64,000 nucleotides of DNA from an uncultured Gammaproteobacteria bacterium (GTDB lineage: Bacteria > Patescibacteriota > Microgenomatia > UBA8517), in the NCBI GenBank assembly GCA_964431555.1, contig CAYSJW010000005.1:15215-79214 (forward strand), given 5' to 3'. The translations under genes were made by a program, and so were the position numbers. Numbering within the stretch: the first letter of the stretch is position 1; the number at the start of each line of letters is the position of its first letter. This document shows positions 10,005 to 16,012 of the stretch, piece after piece. The notes under the pieces were generated by a model. The model saw only the letters and a program-made list of their open reading frames with translations, searched no databases and was not told where the DNA came from.

Positions 10005-10140
10005 GCTTACGATTCCGGCCTTGACCTATTTTCGCATAGGGTTGCCCCTACACTATCGTCGGCGCTGGAGCGTTTTACAGATCTTGTTCGAAATGGAAAA
10101 GTGTAGTCCCACTCCGCTCACAAGACCGGAATCCTAAGCA
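10005..10140 (-). rRNA. rrf: 5S ribosomal RNA.
   Basis: Reverse complement contains CGAACAAGATCTGTAAAACGCTCCAGCGCCGACGATAGTGTAGGGG...CCCTATGCGAAAATAGG (compare E. coli CCGAACTCAGAAGTGAAACGCCGTAGCGCCGATGGTAGTGTGGGG...CCCATGCGAGAGTAGG). Helix I pairs TGCTTAGGATTCCGG with CCGGAATCGTAAGCA. Ends are approximate. Confidence 0.85.
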
Positions 10141-10535
10141 CAAACAACTTGCTCCCTGACAACTAAAGAGGAGGTCGTAAAAGAATTTTTTCGACCTATT
10201 CGTAGAAGGTAAGCTTAACATCTTACGATGCTTCCACTTCCTTTCGAACAATCTGGTATTCTGCCAGAGGTCTATGACGAGTTCTAATCTTGGGGTGGGC
10301 TTCCCACTTAGATGCTTTCAGCGGTTATCCCTTAGGAATGTAGCTACCCGGCGATGCCGCTGACGCGACAACCGGCACACCAGGGATTCCTCCAGCCTGG
10401 TCCTCTCGTACTGAGGCCAGCTCCCCTCAAAACTCATAACGCTTCCACCGGATAGAGTCCGACATAATTGTTACAAAGGCCGGGTTTTTATACCGGCTCC
10501 CTATGTCGCCATAGGGGTCCGACTATATCTTCTCT

Positions 10536-11304
10536 ACACAAAGTATAGAGTCTGGCGTATAGTCTGTGAGGATTCCAAACTAGAATGATTTTAACATCTG
10601 TCGCTTAGAGTACTTTCTCTTCCGAGTATTCATTGAATAAGAAATATCTAAGATATTCTTCATTCCTTCCCTAGTAAGATGCTTTCCTGACTCAACTAAC
10701 TTTAAAACTTGTTTAAATTTATAAAAAGCATCTCTTTTAATAAAAAGTCTTTTATCAAAGAAAGGAATAATTTTATGCAACAGACTAGATAAATCCCTTA
10801 CTACAAAAGCAAGTGATTTATCGTTTTTATCTGATGAACTATTTTGTCTTATGTAACCACATTGTAATCTATCCTTAAGAGATTCCAAAACCTTTCTGCC
10901 GGAAGGGTTCTGTGAAACCTTAAAAAAATAGATTACCTGCCAGCCATATTTTGTTTCAGAAGAAGGGACAACTCCTATATAAAACATTCCCTCTCCTTCA
11001 ACAAAACCAATAAAATAGTCGTCAGAAAAATACATATCTAGCTTGGTCTTTCCTGCTGGTTGACTCAGAGTTAAGATTTTCACCAGTACATAGATTATAT
11101 ACTAGTACTTAACTATTTAACGAGTGTTTCCAGCATACAGTGGCAAACTAAAATAAATTCAGTTCACCATCCCGTACTTAATAGTACTAGGACCAGATTT
11201 ATCTCAAACTGGGGGTTTGAGCCTGTAGAATACAACAGAGTCCTCAAGATCCAGAACCTCTACAGGAAAGACAGCTCGGTCATCTTGATATGTCTAACAA
11301 GATC
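10536..11304 (-). mobile_element. Group I intron in 23S rRNA domain V carrying a LAGLIDADG homing-endonuclease ORF.
   Basis: 23S collinearity breaks immediately after ...CGTCGCGAGACAGTT (plus coordinate ~11305). It resumes at ~10535 with the GTCGGACCCCTATGGCGACATAGGG region (compare E. coli GTTCGGTCCCTATCTGCCGTGGGCG). The intervening ~770 nt contains ORF 10580..11083. Confidence 0.85.
10580..11083 (-). CDS. LAGLIDADG-family homing endonuclease (intron-encoded).
   Basis: [39 protein letters not shown] carries the LAGLIDADG-type motif [10 protein letters not shown]. 167 aa, embedded in the 23S intron. Confidence 0.9.
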
Positions 11305-13505
11305 AACTGTCTCGCGACGTTCTGAACCCAGCTCACGTACCGCTTTAATGGGCGAACAGACCAACCCTTGGGACCTTCTCCAGCCCCAGGATGCGGTGAG
11401 CCGACATCGAGGTAGCGAACCGCACCGTCGATATGGACTCTCGGGTGCGACTACTCTGTTATCCCCGGGGTAGCTTTTATCCGTTAAGCTCCGCCCACAC
11501 CCATTGTGGATCGGAGGATCACTAAGACCTGCTTTCGCACCTCAAGGCACCATTCAGTGCCCTGCCAGATACCAAATGGCATCTGGGCTCCTGCCGTCAC
11601 AGTCGCAGTCAAGCTGGCTTATGCCTTTGTACATAAAGCACGATGTCCATCCGTGCTAAGCCAACCTTTGTACCCTTGCGTTACTCTTTGGCAAGGTACC
11701 GCCCCAGTAAAACTGCCCATCTAGCACTTTCCCCTGATTCGTTTGCAGAACCATAAGGTAAGTCTTGCCACGCTCCAAAGGGAGGTGTTTCACTTTCCCA
11801 GATACCATAGAGTACCTGGTCCCTCCTACTCTAAACAATTGGTTCGCACAAAACAATGCCAAACTGCAGTAAAGCTCCACGGGGTCTTTTTGTCCGGGTG
11901 GAAGTAGGCCGCGTCTTCACAGCCATCGCAATTTCGCCGAGTAGAGGCTCGAGACAGTTGCTAACTCGTTACGCCATTCGTGCAGGTCGGAACTTACCCG
12001 ACGAGGGACTTCGCTACCGTAGAACAGTTATAGTTACTGCTGCCGTTTACCGGAGCTTGAGTTCGGTGCACATAGCACACAACCATCAACTTCCACACCA
12101 GCCTTATTAGTCGTTAGCTGATTGTCGGTTGTTGAAAGTTGTGCGCTATGCACACCTCCCCTTAACTTACCGGCACTGGGCAGGCGTCAGCCCATATACC
12201 TTACCTTTCGGTTTTGCATGGACCTGTGTTTTTGTTAAACAGTCGGTTAGCAATCGTTAGCTGCGCCCTGAAGCCAGCTTGCGCATGCTTCAGGGAGGAC
12301 ATATCCCTAAGTTACGTCCAGCTTTTTTGCCGAGTTCCTTGAACCTCTTTCTCTCGCTCGCCTTAGTATTCTCTACCAGCCCACCTGTGTCGGTTTGTGG
12401 TACGGCTTGCTTTGAATCTCACTGCGAGCCTTTTTTGAAAGACTGAATAGGATGAAATTGCCCCGCTTTCGCAAGACTTTGCATAACTGCTTGATTAATC
12501 GTTTCAGCGGATTTCCCAACTGCCACTATCTCACAGCTTACACCGGACTTCACGTACCGGCTTCAACTATCCAACCTTGTCAGCCCCCAGCTAGTGTGCG
12601 TTGCACACTTGGGCGATTCAAAACAAATACAGGAATTTTAACCTGTCATCCATCAGCTACCCCCGCAATGCAGGGCTCACCTTAGGTGCCGACTAACCCG
12701 TCGCGGACGAACCTCCCGACGGAAACCTTGGGCATTCGGCGGAGGGGATTCTCACCCCTCTAGTTCGCTACTCATACCGGCATTCTCACTTCCAAACGCT
12801 CCACCACACCTTACGGTATGACTTCACCGCATTTGGAACGCTCCCCTACCGGGGATACCAAACGGTACCCCCCTCTGGCTTCGGTATCATTTTTAATCCT
12901 CGATAAATCTTCGGCGCCGTAAACCATCAACCAGTGAGCTGTTACGCTATCTTTAAAGGGTGGCTGCTTCTAAGCCAACCTCCTGGCTGTCTATGATTTT
13001 CGACTTCCTTTCAAACTTAAAATGAATTTAGAGACCTTAGCCGAGAGTCTGGGTTGTTTCCCTCTCGTCTTATCAGCTTAGCCCGATAAGACTGTCTAGC
13101 AAGTTTTCGCACATCATTATTCGGAGTTTGGTTGGAATAACTCGGTTGCCCTCGCTATCCCATCCAGTAGCTCTACCACTAATGTACCTACCTTGCCACG
13201 GTGCCTATACACCTTTCGGGGAGAACCAGCTATCTCCAGGCTCGATTGGCATATTACCCCTATCCACAAGTCATCCGAGCTTATTGCAACAAACACCGGT
13301 TCGGGCCTCCCCCTAGATTTCTCTAGGGTTCACCCTGCTCATGGATAGATCGCTCTGGTTTCGGGTCTCGCCACACTTTCTAGGGCACTATTCGTACCCA
13401 TCCAAAATGGAATTCGCTTTCGCTACGCCTCCGTTCTTTAAAGAACTTAGACTTGTGAAAATGAGGCGAACTCGCCGGTTCATTCTTCAATAGGCACGCT
13501 ATCAC

Positions 13506-13640
13506 ACCTCGCTTCACTCGGTGTTCAAAAAATCAAAATGAAAAAGAATAAATATTAAAGAATTAATAAACTTTTATCTCTTAAATACTCATCTTACACT
13601 TTTCATTTTGAAGTATGAATTTGAGCGTCGAGTGAAACGA
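13506..13640 (-). other. AT-rich hairpin insertion (intervening-sequence-like expansion) inside the 23S rRNA 5' half.
   Basis: ~130 nt of ~20% GC inside otherwise ~50% GC rRNA, with an inverted repeat CAAAATGAAAAAG...CTTTTCATTTTG. It is flanked by conserved 23S sequence. Confidence 0.5.
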
Positions 13641-14724: not shown

Positions 14725-14954
14725 TAACCCCCACGGATCTTTTAATTTTTTTAATCTGCAAAACAAAAAAACCCGCTCATTAAGGCGGGTTGACTAAACA
14801 AAAGGAAACCTCTTTCACCCACAAAAGGGGGTATTAAGATTGGTTTCTTTGTGAATTTTCATTATTTTCATCAAGCAACTCGCCTTAAGGCAAGGACAAT
14901 TATATTACACTCTGTCAAGACAAGTCAACCACAATTTTTTTCAAAATATCTCCC

Positions 14955-15839
14955 CTAATTGATTGATTCTTGAATAATTTCTCTGGCTTGATTAATAGGT
15001 AATTTTTCGTTTTTTACATTAACCTCATCAGGCAAATTCTTTCCCCAAATTTCCAAAATTCTTTGTCTATCATTTTCATCCGTAACTAACTGCTTAAATC
15101 TCTCCCTTACAAAATTAACGAAAAAGTATGGATTAACTTCTGCAAAAGGATTTTCAATCCCATTTTCATATATCAATCCTAAAAGTCTCCTCTCATTTTG
15201 ACTAAATAAATCATTACCAATCTGATCCATGACTCTCATAAAAACACTAAATGGAGATTTTTGGTCTTCAGGCATGTATTTCGTTTCGTTTATAAGATGT
15301 TTGACAAATTGATTATACCTTTGCTTTTTTTCCTCGCCCAAATTGGAATTATTAATTAAAAATTCAGCAATAGCTTGACTCCTTTCTTCCGCAACTTTGC
15401 CTGTAAAAACATCTTTACCAGCAGTATAGTTGGGAAGGAAAGAAGGTTTAATATTGCCACTTCTTACCGAGAGAAAACTTATTATATTACCAGTATCGTG
15501 GGTATAGATTGCAAACATTATAGCTTCAGACAATTCATCTTCCGGAATAATTAAGTCTGGATGAGAATTATTCCACAAATCCAACGACTTATACAATTCT
15601 AACGGATCATCATCTCTAGAACATCCATCCATATACTTTTTTACAGCACCCACTACTGCTTCAATGTGGCGTCTATTATGAAAGGAGTCTTTATTATTCC
15701 ATACCTCGCTATCAAAAGTATCATGCCACGTAAGACATTTTTCCCAAATTTCCTGGGGCGATAATTGCTCCTTTAATCTACTAGTCTCATTCTCAACAAT
15801 TACAGTTTGAATTTCCTGATTTTCAAGAACATCTGTCAT
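14955..15839 (-). CDS. HD-domain (metal-dependent phosphohydrolase superfamily) protein encoded between tRNA-Ile and tRNA-Ala of the rRNA operon.
   Basis: A 294-aa ORF with H...HD motifs (FHNRRHIEAVV; AIYTHDTGNI) and later acidic residues. It is on the same strand as, and between, the two spacer tRNAs. Confidence 0.55.
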   Translation of the reverse strand: MTDVLENQEIQTVIVENETSRLKEQLSPQEIWEKCLTWHDTFDSEVWNNKDSFHNRRHIEAVVGAVKKYMDGCSRDDDPLELYKSLDLWNNSHPDLIIPEDELSEAIMFAIYTHDTGNIISFLSVRSGNIKPSFLPNYTAGKDVFTGKVAEERSQAIAEFLINNSNLGEEKKQRYNQFVKHLINETKYMPEDQKSPFSVFMRVMDQIGNDLFSQNERRLLGLIYENGIENPFAEVNPYFFVNFVRERFKQLVTDENDRQRILEIWGKNLPDEVNVKNEKLPINQAREIIQESIN

Positions 15840-15939
15840 TTAATAACCCTTGATATATATGATATATACTTCATTTTACCAACCTGGAAAATAAAATTAA
15901 AACAAATCTCCTTTATTTATAAAAATAGTTCAGTTTTTG

Positions 15940-16012
15940 TGGGCGGCCATGGAATCGAACCATGCACCTCTTACTTATCAGGTAAGCGTTCTAACCGATG
16001 AACTAGCCGCCC
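15940..16012 (-). tRNA. tRNA-Ile (anticodon GAU).
   Basis: Reverse complement GGGCGGCTAGTTCATCGGTTAGAACGCTTACCTGATAAGTAAGAGGTGCATGGTTCGATTCCATGGCCGCCCA. The anticodon loop is CTGATAA and the cloverleaf is canonical. Confidence 0.9.

Follow-up and report, generated by a model that had tools for sequence, protein, structure and literature searches.

A 23S rRNA gene about 1.2 kb longer than usual lies on a 64,000-nucleotide (nt) stretch of bacterial DNA (positions 15,215–79,214 of contig CAYSJW010000005.1, GCA_964431555.1, originating from ENA assembly ERZ27245602), and the question raised by this locus is what the extra length consists of and what becomes of it in the ribosome. We refer to the whole stretch as the window, and all coordinates below are window positions. 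An initial annotation had read the locus as a rearranged and unusually invaded rRNA operon in which a 23S gene of ~4.1 kb holds a ~770-nt group I intron encoding a LAGLIDADG enzyme, an AT-rich hairpin, and 300–400 nt of length left unexplained. From the analysis given here, it is very probable that the locus is a tRNA-Ala/23S/5S transcription unit whose 23S gene holds a mobile group I intron between U2604 and U2605 and also carries hairpin inserts, the one at helix 25 resembling an intervening sequence (IVS).

The 23S gene is interrupted between U2604 and U2605

The models matched in the flagged interval with Rfam were bacterial large-subunit (LSU) rRNA, 5S rRNA, and two tRNAs. The 23S gene occupies 14310..10191 on the minus strand (LSU_rRNA_bacteria, 2053 bits), and its 4,120 nt exceed the length of the Escherichia coli gene by about 1,217 nt, in keeping with both lengths first proposed; the intron contributes 843 nt of this excess and other sequence a net ~374 nt. 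A whole-window Rfam alignment had ended the gene at 11235, leaving the LAGLIDADG open reading frame (ORF) in a 23S–5S spacer. This arrangement was refuted by a truncated alignment restricted to 9900..11900, in which the 23S gene extends to 10191 (model position 2912 of 2925) and 858 nt face 15 model positions at LSU model 2615–2630. Exon 1 (11306..14310, minus strand; Rfam LSU and MAFFT against E. coli 23S) thus covers E. coli positions 1–2604, and exon 2 (10191..10462, minus strand; truncated Rfam alignment) runs from E. coli 2605 to the 3′ end. The E. coli reference was a 2,903-nt 23S copy, one base shorter than that of K-12, so that its position 2603 is K-12 U2604; a first reference match was discarded as its 23S was annotated at 2,590 nt. 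Exon sequence is continuous and conserved on either side of every insert in the gene.

In the MAFFT alignment, a single 843-nt insertion separates U2604 from U2605 (K-12 numbering), which we take to be two adjacent pseudouridine sites. The junctions, marked here by arrows, read ...GGGUUCAGAACGUCGCGAGACAGU↓UGAUCUUG...AACAAUUAUG↓UCGGACUCUAUCC, and the insertion point is GAGACAGU↓UCGG, i.e., GACAGU↓UCGG, within the domain V site GAGACAGTT of the peptidyl-transferase region. We assign the insertion (10463..11305, minus strand) to the group I introns from its junctions, the MAFFT alignment, the Rfam family Intron_gpI, and covariation over 27 homologs. The initial annotation was right about class and site, and its size is revised to 843 nt (11305..10463).

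The helices drawn for the window intron are P1, P10, P2, P2.1, P3–P9, and P9.1. For P1, the exon end GAGACAGU (11313..11306) pairs with the guide GCUGUCUU (11275..11268), with a U·G pair at the cleavage site; for P10, CCGA (11279..11276) pairs with the exon-2 start UCGG and lies directly 5′ of the P1 guide strand, its canonical placement. The intron ends in ...AUUAUG↓UCGG, with the ωG at 10463. P3 is UCUGGU/GCCAGA, P4 is UGCUGG/CCAGCA, the P5 extension consists of P5a and P5b, and P7 is GACUAUA/UAUAGUC; P8 is a hairpin, as is P9, which has a GCGA loop. P6 consists of an inner GGA/UCC and a 10-bp outer stem, CCAAGCUAGA/UCUAGUUUGG, that encloses the ORF, whose start codon lies one base past the 5′ strand and whose stop codon falls within the 3′ strand. 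P, Q, R, and S-like core elements are all present, and no P7.1 or P7.2 helices were seen between the P3 3′ strand and P8 of the window intron.

By canonical group I anatomy, the guide GCUGUC would pair with the exon end GACAGU to form P1 with its U·G wobble at the cleavage site, P10 would arise from pairing of the adjacent CCGA with UCGG at the start of exon 2, and the P3–P9 core would bind guanosine at P7. Two transesterifications would then release the intron after the ωG (10463) and restore an intact 23S rRNA, with a predicted junction of ...GAGACAGU joined to UCGGACUC once 11305..10463 is removed.

Covariation across the family and a switch at the splice site

A pattern scan with one genome per species yielded 40 related loci, which carry labels such as L004 or L045. 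Those with a lineage name all belong to the Microgenomates group of the Candidate Phyla Radiation (CPR), namely Woese-, Davies-, Roizman-, Ames-, Blackburn-, Curtiss-, and Shapirobacteria; several of the 40 bear placeholder names with no lineage name. An insertion of 726–913 nt is found at the identical exon site in 32 of the 40 loci, and the terminal G is kept in 30 of these 32 family members.

We measured covariation over 27 of the 32 introns with the ORF removed, using 69 pairs in P1, P1a, P3, P4, P5a, P5b, P6, P7, P8, and P9. Standard pairs form in 96.0% of the sequence-by-pair cells, as against 31–44% in controls in which the 3′ partner was slid by 1–3 columns, a comparison somewhat biased in favor of the tested structure since that structure was derived from the window sequence. 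Both sides change in 38 of the 69 pairs. Compensatory changes are abundant in P5a, P8, P9, P1a, and the outer P6 stem, P7 switches between U-A (5 introns) and C-G (22 introns), and P4 is nearly invariant. Between the window and its closest relative, L045, compensatory changes occur in P1a, P5a, P6, and P8. The P3–P9 core, on which the initial annotation had let its intron stand or fall, is therefore present with covariation support.

The pair at the splice site itself also covaries. It is U·G in 18 of the 27 introns and C·A in the other 9, without exception, and the other P1 pairs are standard in 81–100% of the introns. In the C·A introns (L011, L015, L018, L020, L026, L030, L032, L034, and L042; compared at the positions of window 11306 and 11275), the exon ends in C rather than U (23S U2604C), and the guide partner of this base is A rather than G. 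The switch looks like a natural version of the C·A wobble that has been engineered at group I splice sites. The C·A set is largely from Daviesbacteria, so the switch events may be few. A literature search found no relevant report of natural C·A wobble splice sites.

One further structure is shared with a single relative. Between the P3 5′ strand and J3/4 lies a nested insertion of ~50 nt that folds into two hairpins (11142..11191, minus strand), and in the alignment of 32 introns only the window intron and that of L045 have one. Compared with the window, L045 shows two changes in the first hairpin that together replace a U-A pair by C-G, and in the second hairpin a single U-to-C change by which G·U becomes G-C; from these compensatory changes we conclude that the nested insertion is structured and tolerated.

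The relatives also differ in how much else they carry, with up to ~1.5 kb more than the window upstream of the 2604 intron. L045 has a second LAGLIDADG intron at 23S position 2593 (L045:1461–2210), with the junctions ...AACGU↓AAAUUACG...AUCAUG↓CGCGAGACAGU↓..., so that an 11-nt micro-exon separates its introns at 2593 and 2604, and further upstream it has a ~714-nt insertion (L045:99–813) with an ORF of the 23S_rRNA_IVP family.

The intron carries a single-motif LAGLIDADG gene

Looped out of P6 is a gene for a single-motif LAGLIDADG_1 endonuclease of 151 residues (10580..11035, minus strand), identified from Pfam, Protein Data Bank (PDB), and homolog comparisons. The Pfam domain is matched once, over residues 25–126 of a 167-residue ORF and with a score of 58.3 bits (cut-off, 23.1), which confirms the enzyme family first named; the GTG start of that longer ORF was rejected in favor of the ATG at 11035 on the family alignment and public gene calls. 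In the PDB, the protein matches each half of two-domain enzymes of the I-OnuI, I-SmaMI, and I-LtrI type (E 1e-28 to 3e-36) as well as single-domain enzymes such as 5gkk and 3e54, and it matches I-CreI derivatives (E 1e-11) and I-CeuI (E 7e-7) far more weakly. Database homologs at E ≤1e-5 number 387, with 62–100% identity among the 120 matches listed.

The window motif is GFVEGEG. Across 24 homologs, it takes the form GFxEGEG with E13 and E15 invariant, which keeps the metal-binding acidic residue that ends the motif helix. Against the L045 protein (87% identical), the ratio of nonsynonymous to synonymous substitution rates (dN/dS) is 0.068, a value that shows strong purifying selection on this gene.

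The exon flanks, GAGACAGT↓TCGG(A/T)CTC, are partly palindromic about the insertion point, and such a target would fit a homodimeric enzyme. By this model, the 151-residue single-motif protein would act as a homodimer and cut intron-less 23S alleles at GAGACAGT↓TCGG(A/T)CTC, the predicted intact site being CGTCGCGAGACAGTTCGGACTCTATCC; repair from an intron-bearing copy would then spread the element by homing.

Hairpin inserts make up the remaining extra length

The net ~374 nt beyond the intron are placed at seven sites, offset by 98 nt of deletions, and insert sizes were compared with nine relatives by alignment. Four of the inserts are large. At the tip of the E. coli 151–175 hairpin (helix 10, H10) is an 89-nt hairpin (14059..14147; folding free energy, dG, −43.6; 0–22 nt in relatives). 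At the tip of helix 25 (H25), about E. coli 545–549 and Rfam model 583–585, is a 126-nt AT-rich hairpin (13509..13634; 27% GC; dG −44.6) whose basal stem has 14 bp, and only L023 also has an insert there (106 nt). In the terminal hairpin near E. coli 1871 (helix 68, H68) is a lineage-specific 64-nt hairpin (12075..12138; 0–6 nt in relatives), where the Rfam alignment has 81 nt against 12 in the hairpin loop. Finally, a 44-nt two-hairpin insert lies at about E. coli 2367 (11543..11586; 64 against 20 Rfam positions), shared only with L026. The remaining sites are a 41-nt insert at about E. coli 275 (13906..13946), which we regard as lineage-typical because all relatives have 29–119 nt there, a 16-nt insert at about E. 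coli 641 (13394..13409) with none in relatives, and 24–45 nt in the E. coli 1412–1552 region (about 12617..12450) shared with some relatives. All lie on the minus strand.

Each larger insert folds as its own hairpin or hairpin pair. We considered whether a further intron, one lacking an ORF, supplied the ~370 nt and rejected this, as the non-intron inserts are at most 126 nt long and are all helix-tip hairpins; the window 23S gene runs unbroken through positions 1917, 1931, 1952, and 2593, which are known hot spots of introns in CPR bacteria. A dispersed mini-element was likewise rejected, since blastn-short, run against the window and ~400 kb of related loci, found no second copy of any hairpin insert. 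The ~374 nt are thus helix-tip hairpins together with lineage-typical differences; the initial annotation was correct that this length is real, and it need no longer be called unexplained. The AT-rich hairpin reported at 13506..13640 is the 126-nt insert at 13634..13509, and mapping it by Rfam alignment and fold, as had been suggested for helices 25 and 45, puts it at the helix-25 tip.

The helix-25 insert has the placement of an IVS, an extended stem-loop replacing the tip of helix 25, and would most likely be cut out without religation, leaving a fragmented 23S rRNA. It is also a real possibility, although we lean slightly away from it, that the H10, H25, H68, and ~2367 inserts are not excised IVSs but permanent expansion segments retained in mature 23S rRNA. 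Each is a self-contained extension of a helix tip that leaves the conserved core intact, each is unique rather than a copy of a dispersed element, and three of the four lie away from helices 25 and 45, the classic IVS sites; only the helix-25 insert is AT-rich, the other three having 45–55% GC. Against permanent retention, CPR ribosomes are generally reduced rather than expanded. The helix-25 insert, moreover, occupies an RNase III IVS site known from other bacteria, and its basal stem, long and perfectly paired, is like those of typical RNase III substrates; the text of a survey of CPR rRNA genes reads short insertions at these sites as IVSs (Tsurumaki et al. 2024, J Bacteriol, PMC11270868).

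A possible origin for some of these hairpins lies in the spacers of the same DNA. Tandem arrays with a 7-nt period, (GTDGTGR)n, are dispersed through the intergenic spacers of the window, at 16068..16133, 14517..14565, 23756..23896, 33090..33120, 41879..41914, 42190..42289, 59763..59854, and 60093..60250; 19-mer matches with ≤3 mismatches number 23, against 0.02 expected. The related Microgenomates loci, ~400 kb of sequence, contain no such arrays. The 3′ arms of the H10 and H68 inserts (GTTGATTGTTGATTGTTGTGAGT; GTTGATGGTTGTGTG) look like the heptamer-repeat type, as does a 14-nt-period repeat inside the 16S gene (27129..27160). The GT-rich H10 and H68 hairpins and the nested intron insertion may derive from the dispersed 7-nt repeats of this genome. 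A broader proposal, in which the splice-site switch is the natural counterpart of the engineered C·A+ wobble and the hairpin inserts arose from the heptamer repeats and are kept as expansion segments, is one that we think unlikely to hold as a whole. If true, the U·G/C·A switch would mean that the ribozyme follows the geometry of the wobble and not the identity of the bases, and the H10 and H68 inserts would be bacterial expansion segments in the mature ribosome of a group known for shrunken ribosomes.

Is the intron a decaying relic?

Several points weigh against a mobile group I intron in this transcription unit. Splicing, endonuclease activity, and IVS excision at this locus are all steps that we infer. 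The Rfam match to Intron_gpI (RF00028) scores 35.1 bits (E 9e-7), under the gathering score of 50, and is limited to the 3′ part of the intron (10645..10499), which we ascribe to the ORF and peripheral inserts that split the core. The helices P2, P2.1, P5, and P9.1 as drawn apply to the window alone; the family alignment, in which these peripheral regions align poorly, does not support them. The neighborhood of J3/4 normally makes core tertiary contacts, and the nested insertion beside it might impair autonomous folding. The symmetry of the endonuclease target is 5 of 8 positions in the window's own exons, compared with 6 of 8 in relatives with T at the variable position. Decay also occurs in the family, as judged from L004 and L010, which lack the ωG and have short 3′ cores.

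Taken together, such points could describe a decaying relic, that is, a ribozyme that no longer self-splices or that depends on its host, or an immobile endonuclease, kept by vertical descent. Besides the nested insertion and the subthreshold Rfam score, its case draws on the degenerate family members, L004 and L010 having lost the ωG and part of the 3′ core (57–69 nt remain after the ORF) and L039 and L042 having interrupted endonuclease ORFs. In the window intron, however, the core helices, the U·G pair, P10, and the ωG are all intact, compensatory changes against L045 extend to the nested insertion, and the ORF is intact, its dN/dS being 0.068 and the catalytic residues of its motif invariant. 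One 23S copy per genome is the usual state in CPR bacteria (PMC11270868), so a non-splicing intron in the peptidyl-transferase center would be lethal. We therefore judge a relic to be quite improbable, and retain the reading of a mobile intron. A chimeric contig joining rRNA fragments of different organisms can practically be dismissed: rRNA regions in metagenomes are prone to misassembly and many related contigs break inside the 23S gene, but an independent Joint Genome Institute (JGI) assembly (sample 3300022548) contains the operon with 100% identity over 6,501 nt and between the same neighboring genes, so that it is not a chimera. In addition, the two ends of the 4.1-kb gene match each other, its leader and trailer being complementary and forming a long processing stem, and the exons continue across every insert.

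Gene order around the 23S gene

All elements of the rRNA cluster lie on the minus strand, in the order tRNA-Ile(GAU), a 294-residue ORF, tRNA-Ala(UGC), 23S, 5S, rpsA, and radA. The tRNA-Ile (15939..16012) was identified with ARAGORN and Rfam (64.6 bits). The tRNA-Ala (14650..14724; Rfam, 59.1 bits) has its G3:U70 pair visible in the sequence; ARAGORN on the whole window called a 91-nt tRNA-Pro(agg) instead, an artefact that we rejected since a run on the sub-region gives Ala(tgc). The 5S rRNA gene is at 10013..10130 (Rfam, 63.2 bits), followed by rpsA for ribosomal protein S1 with four S1 domains (8669..9880; four Pfam S1 matches, NCBIfam S1 families, and tblastn synteny). The two spacer tRNAs, which are 1.2 kb apart, are split by a protein-coding gene, as first described.

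The order of a canonical rrn operon (16S-tRNAIle-tRNAAla-23S-5S) is not found in the window, where the 16S 3′ end (~24955) lies 8.9 kb from tRNA-Ile; the interval contains protein genes in both orientations as well as a transposase gene of the IS1595 type. The latter, an IS1595/ISXO2-type DDE transposase gene at 19403..20134 (minus strand), may have been involved in unlinking the rRNA genes. Across the 40 related loci, the 16S gene is almost never within 2–3 kb of the 23S gene, the 23S gene is always preceded by tRNA-Ala(UGC), tRNA-Ile(GAU) is adjacent, inverted, or absent, and tblastn synteny shows the order 23S-5S-rpsA-radA to be kept in nearly all. A gene order common to nearly all relatives means that "rearranged," the term used at first, describes the clade and not the window locus. 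By the same token, rpsA does follow 5S on the same strand (9880..8669), as a clade norm and not as an oddity. The flanking arrangement of unlinked 16S, ORF-split tRNAs, and rpsA after 5S is clade-typical gene-order drift and no functional unit. The CPR host proposed at the outset is borne out, as the 23S exons are nearest to those of Woesebacteria genomes (76–77% identity over about 2.6 kb, compared with 65% for E. coli), and the host is a Microgenomates-group CPR bacterium, probably related to Woesebacteria.

The ORF between the spacer tRNAs (14955..15839, minus strand) is an orphan for which a search of 5.8 billion proteins returned only eight homologs, and in this small family H54, H58, H114, D115, and D205 are invariant (an H..H...HD...D motif). 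It had been called an HD-domain gene. No Pfam or NCBIfam family matched it at E up to 10 or 1, a profile of the eight homologs found no HD protein among PDB sequences, and its AlphaFold2 model, with a predicted local distance difference test (pLDDT) score of 89, has no significant PDB neighbor by Foldseek; weak Foldseek matches (E 0.4 or worse) include HD-fold dGTPase and phosphodiesterase chains. What is left of the HD assignment is the conserved motif, with which an HD-domain identity is plausible. A functional link between this ORF and the rRNA operon was rejected, as its homologs sit in unrelated contexts with no tRNA or rRNA nearby and none is found in the 40 related loci; its position between the tRNAs is incidental. 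The tRNA-Ile/ORF/tRNA-Ala segment lies between two of the (GTDGTGR)n arrays, which share one orientation.

Between this ORF and tRNA-Ala, upstream of 23S, a consensus scan found a sigma-70-type promoter-like site (TTGACT-18-TATAAT, 11 of 12 consensus positions; 14899..14928, minus strand) and, about 110 nt further on, a strong terminator-like GC hairpin with a T run (14770..14791, minus strand; also read in the sequence). The region 14928..14760 matched no Rfam family. These two signals could belong to a leader or attenuator or to a small RNA; alternatively, the hairpin could terminate the preceding ORF and lie past a promoter internal to the unit. Closer to 23S, the segment 14398..14419 holds a boxA-like TGCTCCTTAACAA (14419..14407), read in the sequence against the known boxA consensus, and the 5′ strand of the 23S processing stem. 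The 3′ strand of that stem, at 10151..10183 (minus strand, like the 5′ strand), pairs with 14322..14312 and 14418..14398, and cofolding of the 23S leader and trailer gives −80.9 kcal/mol for the long processing stem.

The 16S gene is interrupted as well

The unlinked 16S gene (24955..27399, minus strand; Rfam small-subunit (SSU) alignment and sequence reading) presents the same difficulty as the 23S gene. The complete 1,502-nt 16S gene returned by whole-window cmscan is misleading, since the alignment stops at an insertion: it collapses after GUACACACCGCC, and the true 16S 3′ end (AAGTCGTAACAAGGTA...GGATCACCTCCTT) is ~900 nt further on. The insertion, read in the sequence at about C1402/C1403, is 873 nt long (25079..25951, minus strand) and contains a second LAGLIDADG_1 ORF of 148 residues (25113..25559, minus strand; Pfam, 62.8 bits), just 5′ of which is a weak group-II-D1D4-1 match (E 0.6). 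It has neither a U at −1 nor a terminal G and so is not a group I intron. It matches the published CPR class of "16S position 1400, group-II-like + LAGLIDADG."

Discussion

The element class, position 2604, the endonuclease family, and the prevalence of such insertions in CPR bacteria are already published, so the window locus offers little that is new in principle. What possibly goes beyond the literature is the helix-level, covariation-supported model of the 2604 intron, the U·G/C·A switch, the nested insertion, and the resemblance of two helix-tip hairpins to the dispersed heptamer repeats of this genome. The structure model and exact boundaries let annotators recover the true 23S gene in Microgenomates and, by the same logic, the true 16S gene. 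Whole-window cmscan proved to be a software pitfall, as it silently stopped at the intron and placed the 23S end at 11235 instead of 10191 and the 16S end at 25898 instead of ~24955. The endonuclease, a strongly conserved, uncharacterised single-domain LAGLIDADG protein whose predicted 16-bp partly palindromic target falls in a universally conserved rRNA stretch, is a candidate of modest interest for meganuclease engineering.

Among known systems, the helix-25 insert is most like the RNase III IVSs of Salmonella, Leptospira, Campylobacter, and other bacteria (helices 25 and 45), being AT-rich, long-stemmed, and at the tip of helix 25. Unlike those IVSs that carry an ORF for an IVS-encoded protein (IVP), it has no IVP ORF, and it has no sequence match in the window or in related loci.

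The 23S group I introns of Coxiella, Simkania, Thermotoga, and cyanobacteria, at 1917, 1931, and 1951, are reportedly self-splicing and often carry LAGLIDADG genes. Those introns lie in domain IV, whereas the window intron lies at 2604. Closer in position is the Cr.LSU intron of the Chlamydomonas reinhardtii chloroplast 23S gene (2593), whose enzyme I-CreI is a single-motif homodimeric LAGLIDADG protein of ~160 residues that recognizes a pseudo-palindromic rDNA site. Cr.LSU is also a group I intron and lies in the same domain V stretch, 11 nt upstream of the window site, and L045 has introns at both 2593 and 2604. The window protein differs from I-CreI in that it is closer to the I-OnuI and I-SmaMI halves (E 1e-28 to 1e-36), and the site differs too.

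The closest comparison is with the CPR survey of Tsurumaki et al. (PMC11270868), whose text reports on 348 CPR 23S genes. Insertions of ≥100 bp occur in 82% of them and add up to 1,327 bp on average, one gene holding as many as 16; 45% of the 23S insertions are group-I-like, and the sites include several at which group I introns are unreported in other bacteria. Short insertions cluster at known RNase III IVS sites. I-ShaI, a single-domain, I-CeuI-like enzyme from another site, is described there as cleaving its own insertion site and dimerizing. By the same ≥100-bp threshold, the window has two insertions totaling 969 bp (843 + 126), less than the CPR mean, so the window locus is ordinary for CPR bacteria; given also the relatives with up to ~1.5 kb more, the claim that it is unusually invaded fails, and an insertion-bearing 23S gene is the documented norm in this group. 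The accompanying remark that LAGLIDADG introns are known in CPR rRNA stands, as the survey lists 2604, with 1917, 1931, 1952, 2593, and 2657, as sites at which LAGLIDADG_1 predominates. A literature search for "L2604" found nothing. With the surveyed 2604 insertions, the window intron shares its CPR/Microgenomates host, its position, a group-I-like RNA, and a single-domain LAGLIDADG_1 enzyme. The survey is one of sites and families, with no helix-level structure for 2604 in its text, and the present analysis gives one; the nested insertion, the U·G/C·A covariation, and the placement of the ORF in P6 appear to go beyond that text.

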